DNA from: a phage
Length of the DNA stretch: 64,000 bases
Assembly (NCBI GenBank): GCA_027262695.1
Contig: GCA_027262695.1_4722.1
Direction: 5' to 3' (one strand)
Below the pieces are notes generated by a model. It saw only the letters and a program-made list of their open reading frames with translations. It did not search any database and was not told the origin of the DNA. Positions 8,404 through 63,878 of this stretch are shown here, piece by piece. A program made the position numbers and the translations under genes. Position 1 is the stretch's first letter, and each line of letters opens with the position of its first letter.

Positions 8404-8425
8404 TCGCTCTATAACAAACTTTTAG

Positions 8426-10522: not shown

Positions 10523-10554
10523 TTGACGTCTCCTTTTCGTTTGTTGGTGATGGT

Positions 10555-12584: not shown

Positions 12585-13478
12585 TTAATCGGAAGTGTTA
12601 TAACCGAATACTGCTTTACCGTAGGTGTGAGTACCATCACTGAGTGACAATACTAATACGTGGTTATACGCATCGTTAACACCCTTGTCGGTAGAATCGG
12701 TGGTAACACCGTTGTAGACAAAGGTAGCTGATTGCAGATTGGTTTTCAGTTCATTGATGATATCATCACTTACACCAGTCTGCTCTTTAATCAGAGTAGT
12801 CAGGTTACCTGCTAAGCTTGCGTCGAGATTTACTTCGTTGCCAGTAATAGCTTGTAAACCTGAAGCGTAAGTACTGAAGTCTAACGGATAGGTTAACAGA
12901 CGTGCTGACGTTTTGGTACCATTGCCTTCATCAACGTAGGTTAAGTTACCCAGGTTGGTAACCTTGATAATGTTAGACAGATCCAGCGTTGTGTTATAAA
13001 CTTTAACTTGAACAGAACCATACCAAGCCAACGAATCTTCTTTGGCTTCCAGGGTAACGGTTTGGATACCTGACTGATCAAAGGTAACGGGATTAGATAA
13101 CGTTTCAGCTTTGATGTCTTTTGTTTTATCCAGGAACTTCTCGCCGGAAGGCGTAACCATACCGTAGCGTTGAGCTACGAGGTCGACCACGTCACCGATG
13201 GTGGTGTTTGCTTCAACACTAACGCGCACCGCGATCTTCTGGAACCATTTAGCCAGATCCAGACGATGATAGGTGACATCGCGGGTATTGAAGTACGGTG
13301 TACCATCACCCGGACTGAGTGTTAATGTTGCTGCACTATCAGAATCGCTTTTGGATTTAAGAACGTATTTGAGATCAGTGTATTTGAAACTGGCTCCCGT
13401 ATCGGCGTTAAGCTGGTTGATCTCATCAACGATAAGTTGCCACGGTGTTTTCAAAGTAAGTGATACTCGACTTGACAT
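12585..13478 (-). CDS. putative tail/baseplate-associated structural protein, member of 4-copy paralog family
   Basis: 297 aa; shares Y-x-R-[IL]-D-L and LAW-[YT]-GSV motifs with 24541-25446, 26363-27214, 27225-28160. Confidence 0.55.
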   Translation of the reverse strand: MSSRVSLTLKTPWQLIVDEINQLNADTGASFKYTDLKYVLKSKSDSDSAATLTLSPGDGTPYFNTRDVTYHRLDLAKWFQKIAVRVSVEANTTIGDVVDLVAQRYGMVTPSGEKFLDKTKDIKAETLSNPVTFDQSGIQTVTLEAKEDSLAWYGSVQVKVYNTTLDLSNIIKVTNLGNLTYVDEGNGTKTSARLLTYPLDFSTYASGLQAITGNEVNLDASLAGNLTTLIKEQTGVSDDIINELKTNLQSATFVYNGVTTDSTDKGVNDAYNHVLVLSLSDGTHTYGKAVFGYNTSD

Positions 13479-13620: not shown

Positions 13621-14163
13621 ATGGCCTTAGACTTTAACAAAGCAGCGAAATCCCTTCTGCTCGATCTTATCAACACCAAAGCAACTCGCACACTGACCGA
13701 AGAAGAACTGCAGTTCGGTACTCCGGGGGCATCTTCCGAACATTCTAAGAACACCGTTATTCAGCTGGATGCTGCGGATGAAGCAGAAAACCTGCAGGGT
13801 ACTCAGCAGTTCTACTACGATCGTCTGGCTCTATCTGACGTTTTCGCTGATGTAACCGGCGATGTTACTTTCGAACTGCCGCACGGTACTGAAAGCATCC
13901 AGGCTTCCGAGCTGGTAAGCAAGCTGGTCACCAAATTCGGCCTGGCTTCCCTGACCGGTGAAATCAAAGAAGAAACCTTCCAGCTGTCTGCAGGTACTGT
14001 TGGTCAGGTAACTCTGAGCGCGATCGAGAACGGTCTGGTATATACCGGCACTCTGCAGGTTGCTCTGACCTATGCAGCAGCACCGAAAGACGAACTGGCA
14101 ACCGTTCTGGCGAATAACGTAGCTGAAGGTTTCGTGAAACCTGAAGTAGCTGTCGTTGGCTAA
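13621..14163 (+). CDS. abundant small virion protein (decoration or tube-like; function not resolved)
   Basis: 180 aa ORF with strongly host-optimal codon choice (CTG, CGT, GGT, GAA, AAA) unlike neighbours. Confidence 0.55.
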   Translation: MALDFNKAAKSLLLDLINTKATRTLTEEELQFGTPGASSEHSKNTVIQLDAADEAENLQGTQQFYYDRLALSDVFADVTGDVTFELPHGTESIQASELVSKLVTKFGLASLTGEIKEETFQLSAGTVGQVTLSAIENGLVYTGTLQVALTYAAAPKDELATVLANNVAEGFVKPEVAVVG

Positions 14164-17281: not shown

Positions 17282-19879
17282 TTATAACGTGACTGTACCT
17301 AATTTGGTTGTCTTATTGAGATTAATGACAGAGATCTGGGTATCGCTGGTCGTAATCGTTCCGATATTAACGCGCTGTCCTTTATCATCTTCTTGCTTGT
17401 AGATGGTTAACTCCAGTTCTAACTGGTCGCCATTAGGAACAACGGAAACGTACCATGTTTTATTACCTGGTGAACTATTATAGTCTTTTAGGTTATAATG
17501 GCCTTTAGGTAAGGTCATGGCCTTACCGGCAAACAAACATGAAATGTCCTCGTTGATATAAACGTCGAAACCGGAAGAAGCGATGACTGTTGAGGCCATT
17601 ATTCGAGACGCGACGATACCACGATTATAGTCGTCGATTGTGGTACCTATGACATTGAATACTTGCCCCCCGTTACCCATAATGGTCGATTCGCTAGTGT
17701 TTACGTAGCCGATACCCCAAGTCGGATGAATGTTCCAGCGGTACCCACTGTTTTGTAAATATGTATACATGTCCTCATAGGCCGCATTCACCCAACTACC
17801 ATCACTTTTTCGTCCAGCCCTAAATTGGAATGTGTTGCTATTTCCAGATGTCCCTCGGCCAAGCGGGACATGTCCCGCTACTAACCAACCATCCGTACTT
17901 TGCATATATGCGAACGAACCGTACGCTCTGTTATCAGCCCAAATATTCACGGTATCAACACGCTCAACGTAGGCGATTACCTTTTGTACGCCAGTTATAG
18001 CGATTGAACCCTTGCGTGCCGACAAATTAACTTCTGCGATTACAACACCCATTTTACGCTGGCTGCCACTAAACCCCAATACAACCATTAAACACGGTGC
18101 GTTTGTTGCTTCAGGAGGGATTGTTATCGATTGTTTCCAGTCGGTGATTCCGTTGAGTTTTGTTCCAGTGTATGCGTTCCAGACGGTTTGTCCAGCCGAT
18201 TTCAGATTCTGTTCAGAAATAGAAATGCTATCGCCCTCAGGGATTAACGTGTCGTAATTAAGACCGATGTTACTGGATAGACGATTGTCATTTAAGTAAG
18301 ATCCACTGAGTGTGACGTTATTGTTACGATATATTGTCAAGAATGGCGCAGCCAGAGCGTCTAATACCGTAAAGTTACTTGATGGCATGAAACCATAGAC
18401 ATCGATACCATTACCGTGGTAATGGTAGTTTGTCCAACTACCTTGATAACTTACGGTACGCCCATCGTAGTGACCTTGTTCACCGCCACTGCTAGACAAC
18501 GTGTATATCTTGGTTGCTGATAGAAATGCGAGATACCCATGAGCCGCCAAAGCTCCAACAACCCTGTCTTTTATCTTTAACCAATCTGAAGTATATAACG
18601 TACTGTCGGGATTCATTTTGGCTATTTCATCGTAAGCTGTGCCTGCGAAGTTTCCGATAGTGTACGTACGTATATCCGGCTGTCCGTTATTGTCGTTCTG
18701 TACAGCAATTACTTGCCCAGAATCATTGATATCGATATTACCGATACAGTTGTGAGGCCCCCACACCCAATATCCATCTTTATAATTGGATTCTCCTTGT
18801 GTGAATGTTGATGGTCCTCGCCACGCGATGCCGTTCGATTCGGCGTAGTAGGTCGCTTGCCCCGATCCGGGATTCATGGCGTATTTGTTATTGGTTGGGT
18901 CAAAATCGATGTAAAAATGATGCATTCCTTGACGTTGATGATTGTTCTGATCATTTGTCCACCACGATGAACCGACCAGAATTCGCGCTTTACCATTTTT
19001 TACAGTGGACCATAAACGTATTGCAGCGCGCCAGATGATTTGACCGATCCCGTTAGACGGGAAACTATTCGCACTTATACGGTTACAGACTATGAGTTCG
19101 CTGCTATTGTTTACTTGAGTCCCTTCAATTGTGACACCGTTTATGTTAGTGATCAGTGTTGCCGATACACTACCCCCTGTAGGGGCGATAGAGGAACGTT
19201 GAACGGTGTAAATTTTTAGTGATAATTTATAGCCGTCCCTAACAGCAATCCCAATGTAAATAGTCCCGTTAATTTCCCAACAACAAACATCGGGCATCGT
19301 TTCTTTGAAATCGGATAAAGCACCATCGATATACATTGCAACGTGTTTACTGGCATCGAATGTACCATCCGTTAACGCGATGAACATTTTGGCGTTATTA
19401 CCGTTGATATCAGCCGCTAATCCGAGTAGTATGTTGTTCTGATGACAGTAGATGGCTTTAGGTGCTAGATCCAACATAGCCGGTTGGTACTGTCGGCTTG
19501 TCGGTATTACGCTAGTAACTGCACCATTTTGATCCGTTTTACAAATAACGTAATATACGCCATGTATGATGCTGTTTGTCGCCGACCTTAGTAGGACAAT
19601 CGTCCCGTCAGATTCACGACATATACCGTAATGACGATAGTCGGTGATTAAGCCGATAGCACCATCAGCAGAGCCTTCAATTGCCAGAGGAAAATAACTT
19701 TGGTCCCCAACCTGTTCGATATCGGTTGCGCCAATATCGATGTATTTTTCCATCTCAGTGTTGAACTCAGCGGTACTGTAGGCACCGAGATCGCTCGCCT
19801 TTAGTCCCGTTGGGTTGTCGCGACTGGCGATACGCGTAGTAACGCTACTCACCAGTTCGCTGAACTTTTTCATTGCCAT
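17282..19879 (-). CDS. putative tail fibre / tailspike protein
   Basis: 865 aa, Gly/Ser/Thr/Asn-rich; N-terminus RDNPTGLKASDLG resembles the fibre repeat; in tail-fibre operon. Confidence 0.5.
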   Translation of the reverse strand: MAMKKFSELVSSVTTRIASRDNPTGLKASDLGAYSTAEFNTEMEKYIDIGATDIEQVGDQSYFPLAIEGSADGAIGLITDYRHYGICRESDGTIVLLRSATNSIIHGVYYVICKTDQNGAVTSVIPTSRQYQPAMLDLAPKAIYCHQNNILLGLAADINGNNAKMFIALTDGTFDASKHVAMYIDGALSDFKETMPDVCCWEINGTIYIGIAVRDGYKLSLKIYTVQRSSIAPTGGSVSATLITNINGVTIEGTQVNNSSELIVCNRISANSFPSNGIGQIIWRAAIRLWSTVKNGKARILVGSSWWTNDQNNHQRQGMHHFYIDFDPTNNKYAMNPGSGQATYYAESNGIAWRGPSTFTQGESNYKDGYWVWGPHNCIGNIDINDSGQVIAVQNDNNGQPDIRTYTIGNFAGTAYDEIAKMNPDSTLYTSDWLKIKDRVVGALAAHGYLAFLSATKIYTLSSSGGEQGHYDGRTVSYQGSWTNYHYHGNGIDVYGFMPSSNFTVLDALAAPFLTIYRNNNVTLSGSYLNDNRLSSNIGLNYDTLIPEGDSISISEQNLKSAGQTVWNAYTGTKLNGITDWKQSITIPPEATNAPCLMVVLGFSGSQRKMGVVIAEVNLSARKGSIAITGVQKVIAYVERVDTVNIWADNRAYGSFAYMQSTDGWLVAGHVPLGRGTSGNSNTFQFRAGRKSDGSWVNAAYEDMYTYLQNSGYRWNIHPTWGIGYVNTSESTIMGNGGQVFNVIGTTIDDYNRGIVASRIMASTVIASSGFDVYINEDISCLFAGKAMTLPKGHYNLKDYNSSPGNKTWYVSVVPNGDQLELELTIYKQEDDKGQRVNIGTITTSDTQISVINLNKTTKLGTVTL

Positions 19880-38450: not shown

Positions 38451-39833
38451 TTATTTCTTCGATGACGCCTTCTCAAGAATCTTGAAAAAGGTCATACCTA
38501 TACCGACAACGGCTGCGGTGATGCTTGCTGCAGCTTTCCAGACATCGACGTTACGTTGACGTCGTGCTTCTTCCGCCTCACGTTGTCTTTTTGCCTCTTC
38601 ATCACGTCGGCGTATTTCAGCAGCGAATTCCTCATGCTTACGTTTCGCGTCTTCGTCTCGGCGACGCATTTCAGCGATAAGTTCATCGTGCTTACGTTTC
38701 GCGTCTTCATCGCGACGTTTGAGTTCAGCCAGATGGTCATCTTGCATTTGTCGCCGAAGTTCGTCCTGACGTTTTATTTCGGCTCTATGCTGCTCATCAC
38801 GCAGTTTTGCTTCAGCGCGATGGGTCTCTTGCATCCGTTCGATGACGTCTTTATGTTCATCCGCCATACGTCGCATTTCAGCCATCACCCCTTTAAGGGT
38901 TTCTTCTGATGACTTACGTTCGTAGCTACGCTGGTCGAAATCATTTTTGTAGGCTTCCTTCTGGATGGGATCGCGCCAATGCAATGCCGATTCGCGGGTT
39001 GGAAAAACATTGTATTTCCACATTTCTTTTTCCAAATCTTCTACCGGTACGAAGACGGAATCATTATTCCCGAAGGTAACCAACATCCCTGGAGCACCTG
39101 CCCCGTTCGTTGGTTTTATTTCGAACGCTTTCCCCAAGACGTTAACCCATAAGCTGTACGGATTATGGAAGTCTGGTGGCGTCCAATGGATGGTGAGCTG
39201 TGTTCCGAGAATCCGGAACCCCTCTGGTTTTCCTGTTAAACTTCGCGCACATGTTGCGATATAGGGGTGATCAATCCCTTTCGTAACATGGTCAGCGCTT
39301 TTGTATTCTCCTTTAACTTTTACGATTGCCACGTTAATTTGCGCGACATACACAGGTTGATTAAAATTTAAGGCTGTTAGGTCTATTCGACATATCTCGT
39401 CCAAGGTGTCGTACCAATCTTCCTGGTCGAGCAACCTGGGTTTTCTCTCGACGCACGTAATGCGTCGGATATGGGGTTTTCTTACCGCATAACCGCTTCG
39501 GTTTTTAACGCCCAGTATATCCCGTCGTCTACCGTCGTAGACGAAGTTCTTGAACGCGCCATTCGCATTAGATATGTCATGGCTGTCAACTATTACAGGA
39601 CTACGAAATTTTGAACGTCGTACGATCCTGAATGTGTTACCCTCTTCGACCCTACCTGGAATGTATTGGAACATATTGTCGGATGTAATGACCAATACCG
39701 TATGCCCAGACTCATTAATACAACCCCACCCTAACTCTAAGTCATATAACGGTTCCTGGTATCCGTCGATGCTATACGTGCCTGTGCCATCCCACGGCTC
39801 AAACGGCGTATCGCAAACCGGCATAGAGGACAT
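38451..39833 (-). CDS. hypothetical protein: globular N-domain, E/R/K-rich repeat helix, C-terminal hydrophobic anchor
   Basis: 460 aa; repeats RRDEDAKRKHDELIAEMRRRDEDAKRKHEEFAAEIRRRDEEAKRQ then AAASITAAVVGIGMTFF. Confidence 0.55.
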   Translation of the reverse strand: MSSMPVCDTPFEPWDGTGTYSIDGYQEPLYDLELGWGCINESGHTVLVITSDNMFQYIPGRVEEGNTFRIVRRSKFRSPVIVDSHDISNANGAFKNFVYDGRRRDILGVKNRSGYAVRKPHIRRITCVERKPRLLDQEDWYDTLDEICRIDLTALNFNQPVYVAQINVAIVKVKGEYKSADHVTKGIDHPYIATCARSLTGKPEGFRILGTQLTIHWTPPDFHNPYSLWVNVLGKAFEIKPTNGAGAPGMLVTFGNNDSVFVPVEDLEKEMWKYNVFPTRESALHWRDPIQKEAYKNDFDQRSYERKSSEETLKGVMAEMRRMADEHKDVIERMQETHRAEAKLRDEQHRAEIKRQDELRRQMQDDHLAELKRRDEDAKRKHDELIAEMRRRDEDAKRKHEEFAAEIRRRDEEAKRQREAEEARRQRNVDVWKAAASITAAVVGIGMTFFKILEKASSKK

Positions 39834-40045
39834 TGATTATCCTCCCTCAAACAGACAACATACATGCATAATGCACGTCCCTTTTCTTGTTATCATCACA
39901 ACGACAGTCGACGGTTTCAGCATCATTCTTAGCGCGAGAACGACCTTACGTGTTGTCTATGCCTTTTTTCATTGAAGGCTTCTGTCACCTAGGTAATGTA
40001 AGCGTCAAATTTTTTCTAATCTAACCCAGCATAACAGCATAATAA

Positions 40046-40074
40046 CCTCCCTCAGCCCGTAAGGACCGAGGGAG
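40046..40074. terminator. hairpin CCTCCCTC...GAGGGAGG downstream of putative capsid gene
   Basis: 8-bp outer stem with inner CCGTAAGG. Confidence 0.45.
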
Positions 40075-40174
40075 GTTGACTTATGTATCACGGTGCCGGA
40101 TGAATGTCCGGTGTAATGAAACCATCCGCAACGTTGTTTTCAAGAACTTCATCCAACGAAGCAGCTCCGGTATT

Positions 40175-42397
40175 TCAGTTAGTCTGAACCGGCAGCTTGA
40201 TGTTTTCAGTGTAGACCTTACGCAGGTTCACAACGTTGATCAGACCCAGCAGCGGGCAGTTGTTCACGAAACGGCAGCGCGGCTGAACCATGGTTTCTTT
40301 AGAAACCTGACCGTTACGAGTAACCTGAGCAACGGATACCAGTTCCGGTACGTACAGGAACATACCGAAGGTCAGCGGATCCGGAGAACCCTGGATACCA
40401 CGAGACAGGGTCACGAAGATCTTGTCGCGCAACATGACGTTCGGGTTGTCTACAACCACGAAGTTGAAGCTTACACCCACGGTGCGGAAGTCACCGTCGG
40501 TCTGCAGGAACTGCGGGATGTAGTTGTCGGTTGCTACTACGCAACGCGGTTTCTCATCAGCGTTGGAAGACAGCAGCTGCAGAGCTGGCTGATAACCAGA
40601 CTCGGAGTACATGCGGTACGCCATTTCACGAATCACGTTCATGATCGCAGCGGATACTTCAGCACGACGTTCTGCAGTGGTGGTACCCTGAACGGATTTC
40701 TCCAGGTCCAGATCGATTTCTTCGAACCACGGACGAATCAGGTAACGACCGAAACCTTCGATCTGAATGTCACCGAACTGACGGAAGCGAGAAGTTGCAA
40801 CCGCTTTCAGGGCGTCTTTGTAGCTGAACAGTTTCTCAACCATCAGGTTGTCGAAACGTGCGTTAGCTGCTTGGATCAGAACATCCAGGTCAGCAGCGTT
40901 TTCTTCCCAATCCAGCGGACGAGGAATGGAGAACGGAGCCAGCAGGCCGATTGCGTAACGTTCTTGCTTCATGTTGAAGTCAAGATGTTTACCGCGTTCA
41001 CGACGGTTGCTGTTGTTACGACGGATACGCAGTTCGTAACCCACCAGTTTGAAGCTCAGGTCTTCAGCCAGATCTTTGAATTCCTGGCTCTTACGCGGTT
41101 GTTCGATGTTGTCCTGGTCAACCAGACGATACAGTTCAGCGGTAGCGCCATTAACACGCAGACCCGCTTTCTCTACGTTGGAAGAACCGTAAACTTCGAT
41201 CGCCAGCTGAGCAGCAGATTTCGCATCGATGATGTCCTGCAGCGCTTCAGCTTTCGCACCTTTAACGTCAACGGTGTTCTCATCAACGAAGATGGAGTGG
41301 GTGTCGAACGCCAGGGTCATTTTGCGGAAGTCGCCTTCCAGGGATTTCTGGAAACCGTTGGTGATCAGACCGGATACGTCGAACGGAACGTAAGAGGTTT
41401 TGCTGTGCTTGGTGGATTTAATTTCCACCAGGATTTTGGTCAGCGTGATCTGAGCATCCAGCGCGTCAGTGTTGTCGCTGTAACCGTTAGCCAGAATGCT
41501 ATCGTCTTCAGCGATACCGATCATGTCGATCAGTTTATCAACCGCCAGGTAAGACGTTTTGTAAGTAACGCCTTTGATTTCGATGTCGCGCGGAGCAACG
41601 ATGGTTTTATCAACGAAGTACTGCGCGTTAGCATCGTCAGCACGGTAGATCGGATGCAGATCGGTCACGTCGTTGGACAGAACGTCGTTGTACATGAACG
41701 CATCCAGCAGCGGACGACGTACCCAATCAGCCGGAGTACCATCACCGTTACGACGCAGGTGGTTGAACACCAGCGGACGACGGAAGGAAACGTCATAACC
41801 GATCTGGTTCGGAGCCAGAACGATGGTGTTGTACAGTTCGTTACCCATGCGGCTCAGACGAGACGCCTTCACGTTGAACACAACGGAGTACGGCATCATG
41901 TCACGCAGTTCTTTCTGGTCGTAGGACAGCTGAACCAGTTCTTCAGATTCACAACCGCAGGAATCCGCAGCCATCATGACGAAGTTAGCGCTGTCAACAT
42001 CACGGCCGGACGGCGAGGTGCTGATGTTCATGGAACGTGCTTGTTTAGCATATTCCACCGGGTTGCCATGTGCCAGCATGATCAGCGCTGCAGCGCGAGC
42101 CTGCTGTGCGTTCATGGTGAACAGCTGTTCTTCAATACGTTGCTTCTCTTCCGGAGTTGTGGTTTCGAAGCCCAGCATGGACAGAACCGGTTCTTCAGCT
42201 TTACGGATGTCGCTGCTGAAGCTCTTAACATCCATTTCGTTAACCAGTTTGTCCATGGATTTGAAATCAACCTTAGAAGCAGATTCCATAGACAGGAAGG
42301 TGTTTTCCAGACCTTTGTCTGCTGGTTTGCTACCATTAGCGGTCAGGAACTGGCGAGTGGCCGCGACCTGTTGGCTAAGAAGGGTTTTATCATTCAT
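40175..42397 (-). CDS. putative major capsid protein (large HK97-fold type, by size and codon usage)
   Basis: 740 aa; strongest host-optimal codon bias in window, producing a 774-codon stop-free antisense ORF; AAGGA RBS. Confidence 0.45.
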   Translation of the reverse strand: MNDKTLLSQQVAATRQFLTANGSKPADKGLENTFLSMESASKVDFKSMDKLVNEMDVKSFSSDIRKAEEPVLSMLGFETTTPEEKQRIEEQLFTMNAQQARAAALIMLAHGNPVEYAKQARSMNISTSPSGRDVDSANFVMMAADSCGCESEELVQLSYDQKELRDMMPYSVVFNVKASRLSRMGNELYNTIVLAPNQIGYDVSFRRPLVFNHLRRNGDGTPADWVRRPLLDAFMYNDVLSNDVTDLHPIYRADDANAQYFVDKTIVAPRDIEIKGVTYKTSYLAVDKLIDMIGIAEDDSILANGYSDNTDALDAQITLTKILVEIKSTKHSKTSYVPFDVSGLITNGFQKSLEGDFRKMTLAFDTHSIFVDENTVDVKGAKAEALQDIIDAKSAAQLAIEVYGSSNVEKAGLRVNGATAELYRLVDQDNIEQPRKSQEFKDLAEDLSFKLVGYELRIRRNNSNRRERGKHLDFNMKQERYAIGLLAPFSIPRPLDWEENAADLDVLIQAANARFDNLMVEKLFSYKDALKAVATSRFRQFGDIQIEGFGRYLIRPWFEEIDLDLEKSVQGTTTAERRAEVSAAIMNVIREMAYRMYSESGYQPALQLLSSNADEKPRCVVATDNYIPQFLQTDGDFRTVGVSFNFVVVDNPNVMLRDKIFVTLSRGIQGSPDPLTFGMFLYVPELVSVAQVTRNGQVSKETMVQPRCRFVNNCPLLGLINVVNLRKVYTENIKLPVQTN

Positions 42398-42546
42398 TGA
42401 AAGTATCCTTTACAGATTTAACTTATATAAGTCGGTCGATAGACCATAGCGTACACGCGTGCATGCGCCACTATAGTATCAGTAAACACTTACCGTTATT
42501 GAGGTTGTGATACAACACTAAAAATGCCGCATAACTTTTCCCTACG
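42398..42546 (-). promoter_or_regulatory. upstream region of putative capsid gene with TTATATAAGT motif
   Basis: Minus-strand TTATATAAGT about 25 nt upstream of start; late-promoter-like by analogy only. Confidence 0.25.
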
Positions 42547-43167
42547 TCACAAACGACGCAGGCGATAATGGATGGAACGATTGGTGCAATATGAACGGAA
42601 CAGCGGTAATTGCGCAACTTCCGCAAGACTCATATTAATTCGCAGATGTTCGATAACCGCGCTGTAGTTATCGGCGATACGATCGCTCAGTAACTCTTCT
42701 GCCAATAAAGGAAGACAATCGACAACGATGGCGATCACATCCTCATTAACATAACGCACCCGAACATTGAGTGGACGTTTGTCTGGGCCGTAAGTTGGAT
42801 CCGCCAAACGACGTTCAATATCGCGTGGATAGCTCGTCAGTAAATGGTAATAACCATTGTCATAACGATTGATGTACTCACACAGCACATCAACATTCTT
42901 CTCTGGCGGCAAACCTGTTTCGTCATAGTGATACGCAAACATACCACCAAGCAGGTTGTTAAGATGAACAGCCGCATTCGTTTGTTCGTGTTCTTTCGTA
43001 ATGAAGAAAGGCACGTTCTGAGCTGCGAAATAAAAACCTACATCATTGGGCGATAGTATGCCGAAAAGACTTTTAGGATCCAACAGCACCTGTAAGTCAT
43101 CACGCGCATTTCGCATAATCGCGTGTTCTACCCAATTCGGAACGACGAGATATCGGAGTTCCTTCAT
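42547..43167 (-). CDS. hypothetical protein
   Basis: 206 aa ORF divergent from 43207 gene. Confidence 0.5.
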   Translation of the reverse strand: MKELRYLVVPNWVEHAIMRNARDDLQVLLDPKSLFGILSPNDVGFYFAAQNVPFFITKEHEQTNAAVHLNNLLGGMFAYHYDETGLPPEKNVDVLCEYINRYDNGYYHLLTSYPRDIERRLADPTYGPDKRPLNVRVRYVNEDVIAIVVDCLPLLAEELLSDRIADNYSAVIEHLRINMSLAEVAQLPLFRSYCTNRSIHYRLRRL

Positions 43168-43206: not shown

Positions 43207-44817
43207 ATGGACCCAAAACAGATAGCCATTAAGATTATTACGTTACTGTTTCGTAATGCACAATTGAACCATCCCGATCCCAGTACGATCGAACATGTTA
43301 AATCCGTCTTAGATAAAATCGAACCCCCGAAAAACCATCTCACCGTTGATGTGGATAGAGAGGTTTTCAACAACCTGATGAACACCATTCATTGGATGTT
43401 GGAACAACCGTTATCGGAACCTTTCGATAAACAACAGTTGCTACAAAGGATACGTTTAGATTGCCTGGAACAAAGCCACGTTTACGAAATTCTCGCCGAC
43501 GGATTGTACGATATCGAAGACGATGCTCATATCAGTAAGGTCTGTTCGCTTTACTACAATGAATTACGTAATCTGATTACCCGTCGTCGTGTATTTGAAA
43601 CCTTTAAAAACACGTACATGGATATCAGTAACGGCCGCCTTGGGGACAAAGAATTTTTCGACGCGATGGCGAATTTGAAACTATCGCTAGATACCATCGA
43701 AATGGATACTGAAAACCCCGAAGAAATGTCCTGTATGATTGACGGCTTCATCGCTGATAGTGAAGACGATATTGAAAAAGTCGAACGTATGTTCGTTAAG
43801 GCGATGGAGCGTAACAGTCCTGAAGGGGGATTTGTCACCGGCTGGCAGGGGTTTAATAAAATGTTGGGGTCGGTCGGCGTATTACGTCGTGGTACTCTAG
43901 GATTGATTGGTGCGATGCAACACCGTAATAAATCAGGGGTGTTATTAAAACTTTTCACCCACCTGGCGTTGTACAATAAACCCCATTTCTTTTTTCCGGA
44001 GCGCGCAAAGAAAGCCTTATTGATTCATCTCTCAACAGAGAACGAAGTTGAAGAAAACACGCTTCAAATCTACAAGAACATGCGAGAACAGGAAACAGGT
44101 GAATATGTCGATATTCGTAAGATTGACCCACGTGAAGCTTCACGCTATGTACTGAACGTTTTCAATAATGCGGGGTTCTCTGTCTGCATGCGTCGTGTTG
44201 ATGGAATGAGCTATAAACAACTTGCTAACCTTATCGACCATTTTGAACGTATGGGTTATGAAGTTATGGCTTTGTTCATCGACTATCTAAAAATGTTCTC
44301 GTCAGAAGGATTAGATAGGAATGGGCCTACGGGCGCTTGGCTGCAAGAACTCTTCAACAAAGTACGTAACCTCTGTAGCGTTAAACGTATTTTAGGTATG
44401 ACCGTACACCAGTTGTCTTCTGATGCGAAGATGCGGGCACGTGATGGTAACGATGAAGAATTTGTTGACCAAGTCGCCGGTTTAAGTTACTGGGATGGAT
44501 GTAAAGGGATTGACCGTGAGATTGACCTTGAGGTAATTGTTGATATCGTTAAGGAACCTGGCAAACGTCAAAGCTGGCAGGTCTTTGCGCTAGGGAAAGA
44601 CCGTCAACCGGATAACGGCTCAACAAAACCTGAAGATAAACATTTTGCGATGCCGTTCCAAACCATCGGGATGCTTCCTGACGATTACGGTAAGAAAGCG
44701 GTGTATTGCCGCAAGGTTGGCGGACAACCGGTCTCTGAAGGAGGCAAAGGTCCGTGGAACAAGTTTGATGAACATGCCGCACCGAGTAATGAACTACAAT
44801 TTGATTTAGAATTCTAA
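43207..44817 (+). CDS. hypothetical protein with degenerate P-loop-like segment
   Basis: Start moved to ATG 43207 (AAGGA 9 nt upstream); ORF track start 43123 is GTG and overlaps the divergent gene. Confidence 0.5.
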   Translation: MDPKQIAIKIITLLFRNAQLNHPDPSTIEHVKSVLDKIEPPKNHLTVDVDREVFNNLMNTIHWMLEQPLSEPFDKQQLLQRIRLDCLEQSHVYEILADGLYDIEDDAHISKVCSLYYNELRNLITRRRVFETFKNTYMDISNGRLGDKEFFDAMANLKLSLDTIEMDTENPEEMSCMIDGFIADSEDDIEKVERMFVKAMERNSPEGGFVTGWQGFNKMLGSVGVLRRGTLGLIGAMQHRNKSGVLLKLFTHLALYNKPHFFFPERAKKALLIHLSTENEVEENTLQIYKNMREQETGEYVDIRKIDPREASRYVLNVFNNAGFSVCMRRVDGMSYKQLANLIDHFERMGYEVMALFIDYLKMFSSEGLDRNGPTGAWLQELFNKVRNLCSVKRILGMTVHQLSSDAKMRARDGNDEEFVDQVAGLSYWDGCKGIDREIDLEVIVDIVKEPGKRQSWQVFALGKDRQPDNGSTKPEDKHFAMPFQTIGMLPDDYGKKAVYCRKVGGQPVSEGGKGPWNKFDEHAAPSNELQFDLEF

Positions 44818-44843
44818 AACGCAAAAAAAAAAATCGTACGGTT

Positions 44844-44874
44844 CCCTCCTCCAACCCGGAAGGGAAGGAGGAGG
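44844..44874. terminator. hairpin CCCTCCTCC-AA-CCC-GGAA-GGG-AA-GGAGGAGGG, preceded by A11 run
   Basis: Canonical copy; A-run 44823-44833 gives a U-run after the hairpin for minus-strand transcripts. Confidence 0.6.
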
Positions 44875-44892
44875 GTTATGACCGTTATGGTG

Positions 44893-45219
44893 TTAACTTA
44901 TCGTCATGAATTCCGTAGGTGAGAATTTCCAACCGTTTTCATTGAGAAGCGTGTTAAGTTTCGCTGCAACGATAAGCCATGCGTGCATGGCTGTCACATC
45001 GTATTGGCGATTAACACGGCGTTGGTTTTCGATATCGATTTGCTCCCGTTCGGTGATGTTTGGGTAGAGCGCGACGGCGCTGGGCTTCCCTAACGCATCA
45101 CTCATTACCGCCTGACATTCACTGATGATGTTATTGAGATGATAATTGTAAACCGTTCCACGCATAACACGATGACGGCATTCAATAATAGCGTCGTAAA
45201 TAATTTCTCTTGTTGTCAT
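44893..45219 (-). CDS. hypothetical protein
   Basis: 108 aa ORF. Confidence 0.45.
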   Translation of the reverse strand: MTTREIIYDAIIECRHRVMRGTVYNYHLNNIISECQAVMSDALGKPSAVALYPNITEREQIDIENQRRVNRQYDVTAMHAWLIVAAKLNTLLNENGWKFSPTEFMTIS

Positions 45220-45225
45220 GATCGA

Positions 45226-45627
45226 TTAAAACACACGTTCGTTTTTAGCACGGGCATCCATAACCAAATCGTAGATACCAGCTGTTCGTAAACATTCTTC
45301 GTAATAACGGTGCGTACCTTCCTCCGCCATCCACGATAACCCACGACTATCGGCAACAATAACCAGTTTGTTATTGTTGAATGCGCATACCACACGGTAA
45401 GTCGCATTGTTGTTTGGATCACGTGTAATCAGTTCGTAAACACCATTAACCGGTTTACTGAATTCACCGTTCAGCGGAATAAGTTCCGTTGTACCTTCAG
45501 CAAACGTTACATTGATTGATGCTGGCTCTTTAGCAATGACGGTGTATTCCACGTTGTGTTCTTTACTGGTCATGATACCGAAATAAGAACTTACTGGAGA
45601 ACGTGGTACACTAAGAATATTAAACAT
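45226..45627 (-). CDS. hypothetical protein
   Basis: 133 aa ORF. Confidence 0.45.
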   Translation of the reverse strand: MFNILSVPRSPVSSYFGIMTSKEHNVEYTVIAKEPASINVTFAEGTTELIPLNGEFSKPVNGVYELITRDPNNNATYRVVCAFNNNKLVIVADSRGLSWMAEEGTHRYYEECLRTAGIYDLVMDARAKNERVF

Positions 45628-45690
45628 GAATGTTGTCCTCTTAATTGGATATAGATTGTTGGTATGTATTTGAATAAGGTTGGTTTACTT

Positions 45691-46260: not shown

Positions 46261-46335
46261 CGTATTTACCTTTTTATGTTAGGTGGGTTGCGGATAGAAG
46301 AATCAATGCATAGTCTGATTTAAGTTTGTTAAGAC

Positions 46336-47169
46336 TTACTTAGCTTTCGGATTATACGGACTAACATGTTGCTGCATTCGTTGGATTGTTTCGTAGTACG
46401 GGTTATAATGAGTGAACATATTGTTGTATGGATGGTAGCCGTAAAGCGCATTTTGCCTTGCCGGTGAGAAACCTTTTTGAGAAGGACGATTTGAATTTAC
46501 TGCGAGCACGTAGTAAACCAAATTTTGATGGTCGAATGTTCCTTCGTTTTTGAAGGTGTCAGCATAGGCGCTTACCGCAGGAGCAAGTCTATCACCATCG
46601 GTTGTAATGATCGTACCATCCGGGTAAACTTCTCGAACGATACACCATGTTCCGATGAGAACATCTTCGGGTGTCTTATTACTGTATCCGACTGTAACGG
46701 TAAGGTAAGTATCGAATCCTCCTGAGCACTGCGGATGTCGATAAATTGGGCCAGTCGTTTCTGCTTTATCGGTTACGGTTTTTTCGTAAGGACACTTCTT
46801 GATTGCTTTGATGTAAATATCGGGAATCTCTAATACCGCCTTATCAGGATGAATTCTAAAATGATTCTTGAGTAAGCCCAAAAGGTTGGTTGCTACCACG
46901 TCGTGAGGTAGTACCCAATAACTGGTAGGGGAGTCATCGCCGTCTCTCTTGGAGAAGATGACTGCCTTGTTATCGTCGTCTGGTAGACTGAAGAAAACGA
47001 TTGACTCAATAGGCATAGCCAGCTCACCACAACAGGGGTCAGCGGATAACACCCAATTGTATTTGTTGTCCGTTTCGTATAAATGTTCTGTTCTGTCGAT
47101 ACTACGATCCTTCAATTGGATGTAGCGTTCACGTTGTTTCTTGGTTAATTTACGGTAGATAGTGGTCAT
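46336..47169 (-). CDS. hypothetical protein, paralog of 47255-48028
   Basis: YRHPQCSGGFDTYLTVTVGY...VREVYPDGTIITTDG vs YVHPECHTTYDRYLTITGGV...IREIYPDGRITTF. Confidence 0.55.
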   Translation of the reverse strand: MTTIYRKLTKKQRERYIQLKDRSIDRTEHLYETDNKYNWVLSADPCCGELAMPIESIVFFSLPDDDNKAVIFSKRDGDDSPTSYWVLPHDVVATNLLGLLKNHFRIHPDKAVLEIPDIYIKAIKKCPYEKTVTDKAETTGPIYRHPQCSGGFDTYLTVTVGYSNKTPEDVLIGTWCIVREVYPDGTIITTDGDRLAPAVSAYADTFKNEGTFDHQNLVYYVLAVNSNRPSQKGFSPARQNALYGYHPYNNMFTHYNPYYETIQRMQQHVSPYNPKAK

Positions 47170-47254
47170 GTTAAGCTCCTTGATTACGGTAAGGATGATT
47201 TCGGTTTTGTGATGATGGTAGGACCACTTTGTTTAGGATCCTACCAGTACGGGA

Positions 47255-48028
47255 TTATTCATGATCAGTGTAGAAATGGTGAGGATAGCCGGAGTACGAT
47301 CCTGCGTTACCGGCTATGGATTCTTTCTGGGAATCGACGACGAGCGCGTAGAACTGTCGGGAATTTGTTAACGTTGAGAAATAAGAGGAAAGGACTTTTT
47401 CGTTCAACGCATCGCACGGTAGACAGGTACGCCCACAGAACGTCGTAATACGGCCATCCGGATAGATCTCACGGATCATACGCCATTCACCGATATCAAC
47501 CGGCGATGGCGCTGCTACACCACCTGTTATCGTTAAATAACGATCATACGTGGTATGACATTCTGGATGTACGTAAATTGGCTTATTGGCCTCAACTTCT
47601 TCAGGAGCATAGCGTCGACCGAGAAGTTCAATAACCTCCAGATAGATTGTAGGCAGATCGCAAAGAACCCCTTCCTCTTTACGTTTCTTCGTGATTCGAG
47701 GACGAACCTCATTGATAACGTAGGCGAGTTCATTCAGCGCTTCTTGCGCTGGTAGCACGAATAAACGGTCCGGTTTGTCGGACAAGTCTTCATTTACGTA
47801 AACGTAACAAACATCGTCTTTAGGCGCGTAGAAGAAGCGAGAGACCTTAAAGGTTTCCGTAGTACGATAACCGAGACGCGTTTGGTCCTGCACCAGAGAA
47901 AATATCCAGCGACGTCCTTCGTCCTGTTCAATGATATCATTGAACATCTTTGTTTGATCAGGAAGTTGATATTCTTCCTGTAATTTAGCAAGTGCTTCAT
48001 TATCCAGTTTGGTGTAAACATCAGTCAT
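47255..48028 (-). CDS. hypothetical protein, paralog of 46336-47169
   Basis: 257 aa; motifs as above. Confidence 0.55.
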   Translation of the reverse strand: MTDVYTKLDNEALAKLQEEYQLPDQTKMFNDIIEQDEGRRWIFSLVQDQTRLGYRTTETFKVSRFFYAPKDDVCYVYVNEDLSDKPDRLFVLPAQEALNELAYVINEVRPRITKKRKEEGVLCDLPTIYLEVIELLGRRYAPEEVEANKPIYVHPECHTTYDRYLTITGGVAAPSPVDIGEWRMIREIYPDGRITTFCGRTCLPCDALNEKVLSSYFSTLTNSRQFYALVVDSQKESIAGNAGSYSGYPHHFYTDHE

Positions 48029-48055
48029 GATAGTATCCTCGATTAGTAAGGTTGG

Positions 48056-48460
48056 CTAGTCTATCTTAAGCCAGATTGATGGTAAATGGAAATAGACACC
48101 GTCGTCTATTTGTTTTTGTGTTAACGGGGTTGGAAGTTTAGTGATGATGTTGTCGATCGATTCCTCAATGTCACTTGTTAGAACGTCGATGTGGTAATAG
48201 CGAGCGATGCGTCCGTTACGTTCTAGCCAAAACAGACGAACGAAATCACTATTTTTATTAATCGCATTCATAAACACGATTTGATGAAGCAGGATCATTC
48301 TTGACGAGGGGTAATCGTCAGGACGCGGAGTCATCACCAGTTCCCAACGTTTCCGTCGCACGCCTTTTTTGAATTGACTCGTTACATTTGAACCACTTTT
48401 ACCTAAGTTTATAACAAATTGCTTTAGACGATACGGTGTATTTCTGTAAATATCGGTCAT
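48056..48460 (-). CDS. hypothetical protein, possibly truncated relative of the 46336/47255 family
   Basis: 134 aa; C-terminal DDGVYFHLPSIWLKID resembles family N-terminal region. Confidence 0.4.
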   Translation of the reverse strand: MTDIYRNTPYRLKQFVINLGKSGSNVTSQFKKGVRRKRWELVMTPRPDDYPSSRMILLHQIVFMNAINKNSDFVRLFWLERNGRIARYYHIDVLTSDIEESIDNIITKLPTPLTQKQIDDGVYFHLPSIWLKID

Positions 48461-48544
48461 TGATTATAGCTCCAGGTTATTATCACTAAGGTAATATAGT
48501 CGTGAAATAAACTGGAGTAATAGAAATAATAAGACGGCATAAGA

Positions 48545-59822: not shown

Positions 59823-61115
59823 TTATTTTGCTTTCTCGGTTACCGCGTCGAAGTATTTTGCGGCAGCGAAGACAGCTTCGGCGTACTGGCGCACCGACAG
59901 ACGAAGTATTTTCGTGGAGATGGTCATGCCTTGACGTGCCATTTCTGAAACCGCTGCGATGTACGGACGTATGGTCTCTCGATCCACTTCCGGCATTCTA
60001 TCGAGTATATCACCCCATTTTGATTTAATTTTCATGCCAACTAATTTCGCGGTGCGTTCTAGCGTATTTGCCAGCATTTCAACTTCGCTATGATAAGTCG
60101 GCGGTACCTTATAAAACACCCCGAGGTATCCTGTCAAGCCGGTTTCCAGATCCTTCTCATTTTTGAAAATGTTCGGATCGGTAATATCACCTGAACTGAC
60201 GTCGGCTAGTTCGATAGTAATCTGTTTCACCAATTCACAAGCCTTTATTGGGTCGCTTTCTTTTACGACCGCATCAATGCCTTTAACGACGATATGTTTC
60301 CCGGCACTTTCAGGCGCATCAAAACGTTTCAGCGAGACCCTGATGGCTTCGAGGTATTTTACCAGAATAGCATCAAGGGAAGAGATATTTGTCAGTTTTT
60401 CCAGTTCACCGTTCAGGATGGCGATATCGCTCAGGAAATCACTGGAGGAGACCGCCATCTGCGCAAGCTGGCCAATATGCACACCCATGATGTACGCGTT
60501 TGCTGATTTCGCGTTCGGGAACATCGTGAGCATGTTGTCGGTAGGCTTCTCGATTTGCTTCAGTTTACGTTTGCCGTCCTTCACGTCATCTGCAATATCG
60601 TGGATTTTATTGTAAGCATACATCAGATTCTTGAACAACATCTTGAAGAATTTGAAAAGCGCCTCGGCGATATTAGCGATAATAATCCATACCGCATAGA
60701 GCGCTTGCGCCGCACGTTCCTTAAACCCTTCCAGCACGATGGCTTGCCCTTCGACTAACTTGTCGTTAGCCTGGAACATGTCTTCATCAGACATACCCAG
60801 ATTAGCTGCCGATGTTGATGCGATTTGGCGGATAAGCGCAACGTCGCTGGCGCGGGCTTCTGTGATCGTTGGTGCAATTACATAGGCGGTGTCTTCCAAT
60901 GTTGCTGCAGTGCGCAAAGCGATTTCAGCCAGTTCGCTGTTCTCATCGATGCTGTCGTCGGTGTGACGAATCACCAGCTCAACTTCATCTTCCTCAATTT
61001 CTGCGTTAGGATCTTGTTGCTCGGGTGAAATCGATGCAAGAACATCTTCAGCGCTGAGTAAGGCGAGTTCGAAAGCGTTTTTATTGATGTTATCAAAAAG
61101 AGAAATCCGGGCCAT
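59823..61115 (-). CDS. putative internal head / ejection-type protein, paralog family member
   Basis: 430 aa; APTITEARASDVALIRQIASTSAANLGM and VLEGFKERAAQAL align with 61125 gene. Confidence 0.55.
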   Translation of the reverse strand: MARISLFDNINKNAFELALLSAEDVLASISPEQQDPNAEIEEDEVELVIRHTDDSIDENSELAEIALRTAATLEDTAYVIAPTITEARASDVALIRQIASTSAANLGMSDEDMFQANDKLVEGQAIVLEGFKERAAQALYAVWIIIANIAEALFKFFKMLFKNLMYAYNKIHDIADDVKDGKRKLKQIEKPTDNMLTMFPNAKSANAYIMGVHIGQLAQMAVSSSDFLSDIAILNGELEKLTNISSLDAILVKYLEAIRVSLKRFDAPESAGKHIVVKGIDAVVKESDPIKACELVKQITIELADVSSGDITDPNIFKNEKDLETGLTGYLGVFYKVPPTYHSEVEMLANTLERTAKLVGMKIKSKWGDILDRMPEVDRETIRPYIAAVSEMARQGMTISTKILRLSVRQYAEAVFAAAKYFDAVTEKAK

Positions 61116-61124
61116 ATGGGTTCC

Positions 61125-62468
61125 TTAACCTTTAGTGTAGGCTTTAACGAGGGTGTTAATAAAAGAAGTTAGTGCACGAAGGTACTGATAAGCGAATTGG
61201 TTTTCAATACGTTGCTCTTTACTGCAAAGCATGATCGCCCGTTTCACCAGTTTAGGATATATTTCAACGTACGGTTTATAACTGTCGTCGTATTGCTGCG
61301 TATCGAAATTTTTCATGGCTTCATACTGCAGCTTTTCCATCTGACGAACACGAGCACGATCGAAGATCTTGGAGAACGCACGTCCGCGTTGGGTGATTGC
61401 AATCAGATCTTTCGCTAATGAAAGCGGTTTAACGCTACGGAAATCATCCGGTGTGGGTAACGTGTAGTTTTCTGGATCGCTATTCCATTCGGTCACCGCA
61501 TCTTCAACCACAACATCCAATTTCAGATAATTTTCAATCGCAGCAAGAACGTTGTCTTTTGCTGCATTGAATTCTTTTAAGAACACAGCAGCATTAACAT
61601 AACGAATACGTTTACCAGAAACCGCCGGTGTAACTACGTCACTCCCGTCGACGGAACCTCTGTTCTCCAACGCGGTTTTCAATGTATCCAGAAACGACAT
61701 GTAGTCCACAGGAAGTTGGTCAACACGATCTAAACGAAAATCGAATGTCTTCACACCAAGACCGGTGGTAAGGTCGTAACGTGCACCGCCCGCCATGATT
61801 CGGTTGTAGTTCTCAAGGTTCTTCTTAATTTCGTCAACACCACCGACATGATTGCGATTGGAGAAGAGGATACGCCAACCGGCTTTAAACGGCACGGTAA
61901 CCGTTTCTTCTTTACCTTTCGGAAGGTTTTCTAGCGCTTTGATCGCATTCTGGAAATTGCGGGTTTCATCATAGATGATCCGTGTTAATCCTTCCAGGAC
62001 AGCAGCCAGTTGCAGAACAATATCAACAATGATATCCCAGATCTTTTTCAACGCTCGAACTACGGTGTCTTTGAACCCTTCAACAACCAACGCTTCGCCA
62101 ACGGCGATGTTGTCGGTAGGACGAAGCATCGCATCGGAAGGTAAACCTAAAGCAATTGAAGCGGATTCTTGAACGTTACGTACCAGTGCAACGTCACTGT
62201 AATTAGCCGTCTCAATCGTTGGTGCAACATCAAAACTGATTTCTCGTAATGCTTCAACAGCGGGGAAAGCACGATCGAGTGCCTCCTCATGTTCATCGAT
62301 GTTCGCTAAACGGAGTTCAACGCCATCGGCGTCAATGACTTCGGTGGTAGGTTCTACGGCAAGCGCCTCGGCAACGATGGGATCCTTCTCAAAAGCTTCA
62401 AGGCTGATATCACCTTGTGTAGCAAATAGTGGTATACGTACCATGTGATGTCTCCAGTAATAATTCAA
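61125..62468 (-). CDS. putative internal head / ejection-type protein, paralog family member
   Basis: 447 aa; APTIETANYSDVALVRNVQESASIALGL and VVEGFKDTVVRAL. Confidence 0.55.
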   Translation of the reverse strand: MNYYWRHHMVRIPLFATQGDISLEAFEKDPIVAEALAVEPTTEVIDADGVELRLANIDEHEEALDRAFPAVEALREISFDVAPTIETANYSDVALVRNVQESASIALGLPSDAMLRPTDNIAVGEALVVEGFKDTVVRALKKIWDIIVDIVLQLAAVLEGLTRIIYDETRNFQNAIKALENLPKGKEETVTVPFKAGWRILFSNRNHVGGVDEIKKNLENYNRIMAGGARYDLTTGLGVKTFDFRLDRVDQLPVDYMSFLDTLKTALENRGSVDGSDVVTPAVSGKRIRYVNAAVFLKEFNAAKDNVLAAIENYLKLDVVVEDAVTEWNSDPENYTLPTPDDFRSVKPLSLAKDLIAITQRGRAFSKIFDRARVRQMEKLQYEAMKNFDTQQYDDSYKPYVEIYPKLVKRAIMLCSKEQRIENQFAYQYLRALTSFINTLVKAYTKG

Positions 62469-62546: not shown

Positions 62547-63878
62547 TTATTTCTGTGCTGCGTCAGCCGGTTTTTCAGCCGCCTGGCCGCCGTACTCTTT
62601 CAGCATTTTAGCAACGCCGTCCAGTACTGCGTTACCCGCCTGAACACCGTACTTCATCAGGCTAACCTGCGGGTTGATGTAGCAAGAACGTGCGTCTTTC
62701 AGTGCAGACAGCACAGTTTTAACACGCTGTTTCTCTTGAGCAGAAACTTCGCCTTTCTTAGCCAGTTCAGCTTCCATATCGTCGCCGAATTTAACAGCGT
62801 CTTTGAAGCCCTGGGATTTCTTACCGATGTTACCTTTCGCAGCCAGCAGTTTATCGGCCAGCGCTTCAACGCTGTTGATCACCGCAGCCATCTGGTTCGG
62901 GGACAGTACATCGGCTTCCTGTTCCATCACGGTGATTGCGTTATTGCCGCGTTCCCAGGTCACTTTACCGTCGGTGGTTTTGAATCCCCAACCGTTCGGA
63001 CCTTTCACATCAGCGATCGCAGGCGCGTTCAGTTTGTCGGTGTACTCAGTATGTGATTTAGACTTAACGAGTTCAACGAATTTATCCGCACGATCGTCAG
63101 CCGCCTTCATTGCTTTCTCGAAGGTATCTGCGATTTTGCTTGATGCACCAGCGATATCGATATCGCCAATATAACCGGTAACAGTGGTGCCCAGTTTAAC
63201 TTTCGCGTTCTTCGGAGAGCCTTTACGTTTGGCGATCATTTCTTTCAGTTTAGCCGCACGTGCTTTCAGCTTGGTTGCACCGTCGAAGATACGATCGATG
63301 AACTTCACGAAGTTGTCCCAGGTGGATTTCAGGAAGTTCTTAATTGCAGTCCACAGTTTCTGCCACCATTTCTGTTCTTCCAGGAAGATCATGTTGGTTG
63401 CATCATAACGGGAAGCGGAACCGCCGAAGCTTTCGAAGGAAGGCATGGTTTCCGGCAGTTTGAAGCCGATAGTACCACACAGACGTTTCAGATTACGCAT
63501 GTGTTCTTGCGCGGTCTGTGCAGACATACCACCGTCTTTCAGATAGCTTTCGGTCGCAACAACGGTTTCCGTCATTTCGTCCATGGCTTCGTCCATGGCT
63601 TCAGCGGTTTCGTCGTCTTTTGCGATTTCGATAACAACAGCATCAACCTGCTCGATGTCACCACGGACTTCGATAGCCAGTTCGGTTTCAGCAGCGGTGT
63701 CTTCAGCGATTTCAGCACGTTCGGTCAGTTCAGCCACAACGGTTTCATCGCCTGCAGCAGCATCGGCTGCCGGTTCTGCTTCAACGGTTGCCGCAGCTTC
63801 CGGATCGATCTCAGCAGCCAGTTGAACCAGCTGTGCGTTAGATGGATTTGCGACAAGACGATCAAAAATAGAAGGCAT
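62547..63878 (-). CDS. hypothetical head-module protein, possibly distant member of the 58366-62468 family
   Basis: 443 aa; highly expressed-type codons; acidic Ala/Glu-rich N-terminus. Confidence 0.5.
   Translation of the reverse strand: MPSIFDRLVANPSNAQLVQLAAEIDPEAAATVEAEPAADAAAGDETVVAELTERAEIAEDTAAETELAIEVRGDIEQVDAVVIEIAKDDETAEAMDEAMDEMTETVVATESYLKDGGMSAQTAQEHMRNLKRLCGTIGFKLPETMPSFESFGGSASRYDATNMIFLEEQKWWQKLWTAIKNFLKSTWDNFVKFIDRIFDGATKLKARAAKLKEMIAKRKGSPKNAKVKLGTTVTGYIGDIDIAGASSKIADTFEKAMKAADDRADKFVELVKSKSHTEYTDKLNAPAIADVKGPNGWGFKTTDGKVTWERGNNAITVMEQEADVLSPNQMAAVINSVEALADKLLAAKGNIGKKSQGFKDAVKFGDDMEAELAKKGEVSAQEKQRVKTVLSALKDARSCYINPQVSLMKYGVQAGNAVLDGVAKMLKEYGGQAAEKPADAAQK

Follow-up and report, generated by a model that had tools for sequence, protein, structure and literature searches.

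Host-like codon usage in the major capsid protein gene and two further virion protein genes of a Goslar-like jumbo phage

Which protein is encoded by a 740-amino-acid (aa) open reading frame (ORF) whose codon usage departs sharply from that of its neighbors, and what has shaped that usage? The ORF lies at positions 40175–42397 of a 64,000-nucleotide (nt) stretch of phage DNA (GenBank assembly GCA_027262695.1, contig GCA_027262695.1_4722.1), hereafter the window. An earlier note, made from the letters of the sequence, had singled out this ORF and a 180-aa ORF at 13621–14163, and both exist at these coordinates; the note gave no strand for the longer gene, which is on the minus strand. Judged by alignment, the window belongs to a nucleus-forming jumbo phage of Escherichia coli that resembles Goslar (Goslarvirus, Chimalliviridae). 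We report that the 740-aa ORF is a major capsid protein gene, and that this gene and two others in the window carry the codon preferences of highly expressed E. coli genes. We read this pattern as host-codon adaptation through translational selection on known, highly expressed phage genes, and assign the combined reading, capsid call included, a probability of roughly 90%.

Identity of the 740-aa protein

The locus comprises the following features.

40175..42397, minus strand: major capsid protein gene (ORF of 740 aa; Goslar gp41 ortholog; PF25620; PHROG 3231; matches to solved structures)
41927..42397, minus strand: probable N-terminal propeptide, capsid codons 1–157 (chain 36za starts at residue 158)

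The 740-aa protein matched the Pfam family PF25620 (PhiKZ major capsid protein gp120) at 722.6 bits (cut-off 27, E=4.5e-217), with residues 98–731 aligned to profile positions 2–635 of 635, and PHROG 3231, labelled 'major head protein' (E=1.3e-163). At the nucleotide level, the 2,223-nt gene was 96.1% identical to positions 43439–45661 of Escherichia phage vB_EcoM_Goslar, where RefSeq places the major head protein gp041. Comparison with the sequences of solved structures aligned residues 1–740 with residues 1–740 of the Goslar major capsid chain (1622 bits), whereas the alignment to a second solved Goslar entry, the mature form (PDB chain 36za), began at residue 158. Further matches were 8bfl, 'Major head protein' (E=3.4e-62), and phiKZ gp120, 8y6v (E=2.4e-55), the latter pairing window residues 56–731 with gp120 residues 63–735. 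By homology, therefore, 40175–42397 on the minus strand is assigned as encoding a PhiKZ-type HK97-fold major capsid protein and not a tail sheath, and the capsid guess of the earlier note was borne out.

The closest characterized relative is Goslar gp41 (YP_009820726.1; PDB 11bt, 36za), likewise 740 aa long, which aligned without gaps at 98.4% aa identity, has the same genomic neighbors (gp40, gp42 and gp43 orthologs) and differs at 87 nt and by 12 aa substitutions, of which five fall within residues 1–157. Cryo-electron microscopy of Goslar gp41 revealed a canonical HK97 fold, with 1,615 copies arranged as the hexons and pentons of a T=27 capsid (doi 10.64898/2026.04.21.720040); at this level of identity, the window protein is expected to share the fold. 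phiKZ gp120 belongs to the same family, has an HK97-fold architecture and also loses an N-terminal region on maturation, but its host is Pseudomonas rather than E. coli, and the Goslar and phiKZ capsid proteins are only ~26% identical (doi 10.64898/2026.04.21.720040). Residues 1–157 of Goslar gp41 lacked density in the capsid, suggesting proteolytic maturation as in phiKZ (doi 10.64898/2026.04.21.720040). The corresponding 157-residue region is present and conserved in the window protein; by analogy, residues 1 to ~157 are probably removed during head maturation. The gene for the head maturation protease (Goslar gp212) lies outside the window.

The earlier note had left open that the protein could be a contractile tail sheath like T4 gp18. 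A length of ~700 aa and a signature of high expression would suit a sheath, and the Goslar sheath, gp218, is indeed 690 aa long. However, PF25620 was matched over its full profile and no sheath family was found in Pfam or PHROGs; the protein aligned over its whole length with the Goslar capsid protein of solved structure and also matched phiKZ gp120; and BLASTP against gp218 gave a best E value of 0.56 over 66 residues. Moreover, the Goslar sheath gp218 and tube gp217 are other genes, ~150 kb away and outside the window. A sheath identity is thus ruled out by the PF25620 match, the solved-structure alignments and the comparison with gp218, and we regard it as extremely improbable.

Size and direction of the codon bias

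We scored 53 window genes with the codon adaptation index (CAI), a concept reportedly introduced by Sharp and Li in 1987, using weights (w) taken from a reference of 30 ribosomal-protein, tufA and fusA genes of E. coli K-12 (4,894 codons). This per-gene comparison with host ribosomal genes, which the earlier note had proposed, separated the 740-aa gene (CAI 0.794) and the 180-aa gene (CAI 0.705) clearly from the other 50 genes, at about 0.39 ± 0.08 (the third outlier described below is set aside from these 50 genes, although the mean itself was computed with it included). The effective number of codons (Nc) was 30.9 for the capsid gene and 36.6 for the 180-aa gene, with z=+5.0 and z=+3.9 for their CAI relative to other window genes. 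A third outlier of equal strength, which the earlier note had missed, encodes an ortholog of Goslar gp58. Next in rank, at 0.555, came the endolysin-like gp24 ortholog. The two genes that join the capsid gene are as follows.

13621..14163, plus strand: gp23 ortholog, short DUF7941 protein, 180 aa (PF25613; PHROGs; ortholog mapping; CAI 0.705)
62547..63878, minus strand: gp58 ortholog, PF12699 phiKZ-like internal head protein (PF12699 E=3.2e-19; CAI 0.755; Nc 32.8)

These values place the three genes within or above the host reference set itself (mean 0.68; fusA 0.792; tufA 0.836). When synonymous codons were redrawn from the window background, the capsid gene was expected at 0.389 ± 0.016 (z=25) and the gp23-like gene at 0.375 ± 0.029 (z=11); the corresponding z for the gp58-like gene was 14.6. 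The single best codon was used at 74% of sites in the capsid gene and 67% in the gp23-like gene, and codons with w of at least 0.4 at 92% and 89%, respectively. The claim that these two genes use 'almost exclusively' host-optimal codons was accordingly right about a strong bias and overstated in its extent. Codons with w<0.1 occupied 0.7% of capsid sites, versus 13.3% in the phage background and 2.1% in the host reference.

The direction of the shift was equally specific. Relative synonymous codon usage (RSCU) of the three genes correlated with that of the E. coli high-expression set at r=0.94–0.96 (capsid 0.96, gp23-like 0.94), versus r=0.57–0.70 with the phage background (capsid 0.66, gp23-like 0.57) and r=0.60–0.68 with weakly expressed E. 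coli genes. Leucine CTG made up 94% of leucine codons in the capsid gene versus 22% in the background, and all three genes adopted the codons of highly expressed host genes for Arg (CGT/CGC), Gly (GGT/GGC), Pro (CCG), Gln (CAG), Asn (AAC), Phe (TTC) and Ile (ATC). Both G/C-ending (CTG, CCG, AAC, TTC, CAG) and T/A-ending codons (GGT, CGT, GCT, GTT, GAA, AAA) took part in the shift. G+C content at third codon positions (GC3) was 0.50 in the gp23-like and 0.51 in the gp58-like gene, equal to the background, and 0.60 in the capsid gene, versus ~0.48 in its neighbors. The outliers occur on both strands, beside unbiased genes on the same strands. The preference for T/A-ending codons, the background GC3 of two of the three genes and the distribution over both strands thus argue against GC content, strand bias or acquisition from the host as the source of the bias.

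These observations bear directly on whether the outliers could be compositional islands, left by recent acquisition from the host or elsewhere or by a local mutational, GC or strand bias. The elevated capsid GC3 and the visibly mosaic genome lend this idea some support. Yet all three families are chimallivirus-specific (PF25620, PF25613, PF12699), two of the three genes sit at background GC3 amid unbiased neighbors on either strand, and codon usage resembles that of highly expressed E. coli genes (r about 0.95) rather than ordinary ones (r about 0.6). In addition, capsid CAI was maintained at 0.788–0.805, about 0.80, across 24 distinct Goslarvirus alleles despite ~4% nt divergence; 22 of them were loci in E. 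coli- and Salmonella-associated assemblies and metagenomes, and the other two were those of the window and Goslar. The Goslar gp41 gene itself scored 0.798. We consider compositional islands very unlikely.

Virion abundance, tRNA supply and the cause of the bias

Are the three genes those whose products are made in the largest amounts? In purified Goslar virions, label-free quantification (LFQ; area/mass, Table S4) ranked gp58 (229.7), gp23 (229.0) and gp41 (110.0) as the top three proteins. The suggestion that codon-usage outliers mark the most abundant virion proteins therefore held for the two genes it was based on, whose orthologs rank among these three, while leaving out the gp58 ortholog. 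CAI was computed for 242 annotated Goslar coding sequences and paired with the LFQ table. Across the 228 genes encoding 80 aa or more, CAI and LFQ were correlated (Spearman rho=0.63, p=3e-26), and rho was 0.58 among the 160 detected proteins. Only five Goslar genes exceeded a CAI of 0.69: gp41, gp58, gp214, gp23 and gp246 (chimallin, the abundant protein of the nuclear shell). Of these, gp214 is a 159-aa protein of unknown function with a CAI of 0.72 and LFQ rank 6, and chimallin gp246 has a CAI of 0.69. Another Goslar gene, gp097 (85 aa, CAI 0.56), was not in the virion LFQ rows transcribed and may encode an abundant non-virion protein.

Goslar gp23 is estimated at ~2,140 and gp22 at ~580 copies per virion by mass spectrometry, and gp58, described as injected into the host, at ~2150 copies (doi 10.64898/2026.04.21.720040). 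The gp23-like protein of the window matched PF25613 (DUF7941) at 74.6 bits (cut-off 27, E=1.2e-20), its residues 5–174 aligning to profile positions 4–173 of 276, so that it consists of the N-terminal module and linker only; its PHROGs matches are labelled virion structural protein. Adjoining it is a full-length paralog with intermediate codon bias.

12585..13478, minus strand: gp22 ortholog, full-length DUF7941 paralog adjoining the gp23-like gene (PF25613 E=2.3e-51; CAI 0.488, intermediate)

The Goslar and window versions of gp23, gp22 and gp58 share 91%, 85% and 87% aa identity, respectively, agree in domain matches and gene order, and have diverged further than the capsid protein. Purified Goslar gp22 forms filaments, and the Goslar authors propose that DUF7941 proteins, attached to the peripheral baseplate, make up a flexible cloud of filaments (doi 10.64898/2026.04.21.720040). 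Both this role and that of gp58 as an inner-body or injected protein are at the stage of proposals.

Neither the window nor Goslar positions 3000–237307 yielded a tRNA gene in ARAGORN scans. Many other jumbo phages carry tRNA sets. Without tRNA genes found, translation in this phage should depend on the host tRNA pool. A mechanism can be sketched on this basis. The three proteins would be needed at roughly 1,600–2,150 copies per virion, and a phage without apparent tRNA genes would have its mRNAs translated by host ribosomes on host tRNAs. The combination of high copy number and dependence on host tRNAs would therefore favor host-preferred codons in these three genes: selection for fast and accurate translation would drive their synonymous sites toward the codon set of ribosomal proteins and elongation factors, and the remaining window genes would stay close to the background usage of the phage. 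We infer that translational selection of this kind is the cause of the bias, and that the abundance of the three proteins in this phage equals that in Goslar.

Synonymous divergence from Goslar, expressed as the fraction of same-aa codons that differ, was consistent with this reading at the local scale. It was 0.098 in the capsid gene versus 0.12–0.32 in flanking genes, 0.110 in the gp23-like gene versus 0.18–0.31 in its neighbors, and 0.197 in the gp58-like gene versus ~0.50. Each outlier thus had the lowest synonymous divergence in its neighborhood, a pattern that would fit constraint on synonymous sites.

Several points weigh against translational selection as we describe it. Synonymous divergence and CAI were not correlated across all window ortholog pairs (rho=0.15, p=0.31), because recombination mosaic blocks dominate the window-wide signal, and the local dips could stem from recent exchange instead. 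The abundant Goslar proteins gp158, gp66 and gp88 (LFQ ranks 5, 4 and 7) had only moderate CAI, between 0.42 and 0.53. The abundance figures come from orthologs in Goslar, a sister phage that is 89% identical at the nucleotide level over 57 of the 64 kb, and LFQ reports virion content rather than rate of synthesis. Finally, the tRNA scan covered Goslar only from position 3000 onward and, of the present phage, only the window.

A related possibility is that the codons were selected for something other than elongation, namely mRNA stability, avoidance of host nucleases or defense RNases, or efficient passage out of the phage nucleus. In chimalliviruses, transcripts have to reach the cytoplasm from that nucleus and persist there; these causes cannot be told apart by sequence analysis alone, and the lack of strong bias in the very abundant gp158 and gp88 would be accommodated. 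Against this, the preferred codons are those of host ribosomal proteins amino acid by amino acid (r=0.96), a specific prediction of adaptation to the tRNA pool, and the same pattern is seen in many phages that form no nucleus. We consider selection of this other kind unlikely, if somewhat less so than compositional islands.

In many phages, the genes for head and tail favor the codons preferred by the host, which has been read as translational selection (Lucks et al. 2008, PMC2266997). The window resembles that pattern in that virion genes are enriched in host-preferred codons relative to non-structural genes. It differs in that the bias sits in a few genes rather than in the structural class, with portal, baseplate and fiber genes at 0.32–0.48, and in that it scales with measured copy number and, genome-wide, also flags the non-virion chimallin.

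The gene, its structure and the principle of codon bias are all already known; this is textbook translational selection and leaves existing understanding unchallenged. What the present analysis adds is the third outlier, the genome-wide correlation of CAI with abundance and a demonstration that the antisense ORF described below is spurious, together with a confirmed gene call for a protein on deposit only as 'hypothetical protein'. A plain CAI scan picked out the top three virion proteins of a jumbo phage by abundance, of which two lack an established function, and the correlation across 228 Goslar genes provides a quantitative case of codon adaptation tracking copy number in a nucleus-forming phage. 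A literature search of limited coverage turned up no earlier description of this bias in Goslar, and neither the preprint on the Goslar structure (doi 10.64898/2026.04.21.720040) nor PMC12768965 contains the word 'codon'.

Whether host codon adaptation can serve, in tRNA-less Goslar-type chimalliviruses, as a quantitative read-out of protein copy number from sequence is, in our estimation, an even bet. If it can, CAI could flag uncharacterized proteins of very high copy number, both in the virion (gp23, gp58 and gp214 orthologs) and inside the cell (chimallin), and would be usable on the hundreds of Goslarvirus genomes from bacterial isolate assemblies and on other jumbo phages. In that case, the local dips in synonymous divergence would directly show that selection is still acting at synonymous sites in a phage.

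The antisense ORF, the gene surroundings and the phage lineage

Opposite the capsid gene, the codon-aligned frame of the plus strand is free of stop codons from 40046 to 42400 and holds a long ORF.

40076..42400, plus strand: antisense ORF of 774 codons, aligned codon for codon with the capsid gene; arises from the codon bias and is not a gene

In this frame, a stop can arise only where the sense codon is TTA, CTA or TCA, the reverse complements of the stop codons. The capsid gene contains none of the three among its 67 leucine and 52 serine codons, versus ~25.8 expected from background usage (P(zero)=1.6e-13) and ~4.2 from host ribosomal-gene usage (P=0.013). The antisense ORF is thus open because these disfavored codons have been purged from the capsid gene; the earlier note had likewise ascribed the ORF to the codon bias. 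No other window gene was stop-free over its full antisense frame.

Could the ORF instead be a real overlapping gene that constrains capsid codon choice? It is longer than the capsid gene and stop-free here and in 12 of the 23 other alleles. However, the frame carries one or two stops in 11 of the 24 Goslarvirus alleles and is therefore not conserved: ten (Goslar and nine others) have TCA at codon 130, and one has CTA at codons 240 and 504. Codon 130 (window 42008–42010) specifies a serine in the presumed propeptide, written with another codon in the remaining alleles, and is the single site that decides in most lineages whether the antisense ORF is open; the one TCA that breaks the ORF in the Goslar gp41 gene, unlike in the window gene, lies here. 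Of the 87 nt differences between the window and Goslar capsid genes, 74 fall at sense third positions. The 81 changed codons comprise 69 synonymous and 12 non-synonymous changes in the sense frame versus 4 synonymous and 77 non-synonymous changes in the antisense frame. The absence of the three disfavored codons fully explains the ORF, which had no Pfam match. The interrupted frame and the non-synonymous changes rule out an overlapping gene, to which we give next to no credence. The ORF is nevertheless an annotation trap, being the longest at the capsid locus and capable of misleading gene finders.

The stop-free stretch ends at a hairpin beyond the 3′ end of the capsid gene.

40044..40077, minus strand: G+C-rich hairpin of 15 bp, ~100 nt downstream of the capsid stop codon, then UUAUUAUG

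An 81-nt fold of this hairpin had a minimum free energy of −43.1 kcal/mol (z=-6.7), and 0 of 200 shuffled sequences were as stable. It has no T-run; the structure resembles a terminator and probably acts as a transcript 3′ end or stabilizer. Together with an A/T-rich stretch, it lies in the 341-nt non-coding gap at 39834–40174, between the capsid stop codon and the start of the gp40-like gene. A scan of 39700–42700 for Sigma-70 promoters and intrinsic terminators returned no more sites than in shuffled sequence and overlooked the hairpin. The Sigma-70 scan is uninformative because late genes of chimalliviruses use the phage's own RNA polymerase. Reading the regions upstream of the three biased genes for a common promoter motif revealed none that was obvious. 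The capsid gene does not sit in a classical head module. Of its neighbors, the gp42 ortholog specifies a vertex-binding-complex protein, gp43 a DnaB-like helicase, gp39 a subunit of the non-virion RNA polymerase and gp40 an unknown protein.

Mapping the Goslar annotation onto the window yielded 48 collinear orthologs, from gp010 to gp058, with aa identities of 39%–100%. By blastn, 57.3 of the 64 kb aligned to Goslar at a mean of 89% nt identity, which points to a related yet distinct Goslarvirus lineage, different at the species level. Window segments 1–496, 6594–6825, 7632–8440, 8760–10530, 17894–18709, 46320–48479 and 60060–60493 had no blastn match to Goslar, and the ORFs at 8706–9599, 9680–10522, 46336–47169, 47255–48028 and 48056–48460 in such window-specific segments had no Pfam match; the block at 46.3–48.5 kb stands where Goslar has the 62-aa gp047. 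Synonymous divergence from Goslar varied in blocks: 2–11% in gp010–013, gp017, gp027–029 and gp050–055, 23–43% in gp030–036 and gp043–049, and ~50% in gp016, gp018, gp026 and gp056–057. This blockwise pattern points to recombination among Goslarvirus lineages and a mosaic genome.

The gp26 ortholog (17282–19879, minus strand; 865 aa) was 65% identical to its Goslar counterpart, with an unaligned central segment, and is flanked by tail-fiber genes (gp25 and gp29 orthologs) with 95–98% identity; it may be a host-range determinant. Two PF12699 paralogs at 59823–61115 and 61125–62444 (minus strand), orthologs of gp56 and gp57, showed 65% and 71–72% aa identity, versus 94–98% for the adjoining PF12699 paralogs gp53–55, suggesting that these low-copy internal head paralogs diverge unusually fast.

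Proteins identical to the capsid, gp23-like and gp58-like proteins are on deposit as 'hypothetical protein [Escherichia coli O157]' (e.g., EKH6014606.1, locus tag O8H94_001168), encoded on a 248,055-bp contig in a bacterial isolate assembly. Lytic Goslarvirus genomes have already been described from enterobacterial isolate assemblies (PMC12768965; bioRxiv 10.1101/2024.12.31.630880). At 90% identity, the capsid cluster has 249 members, many of them on contigs of 235–248 kb labelled E. coli, Salmonella serovars or Shigella sonnei.

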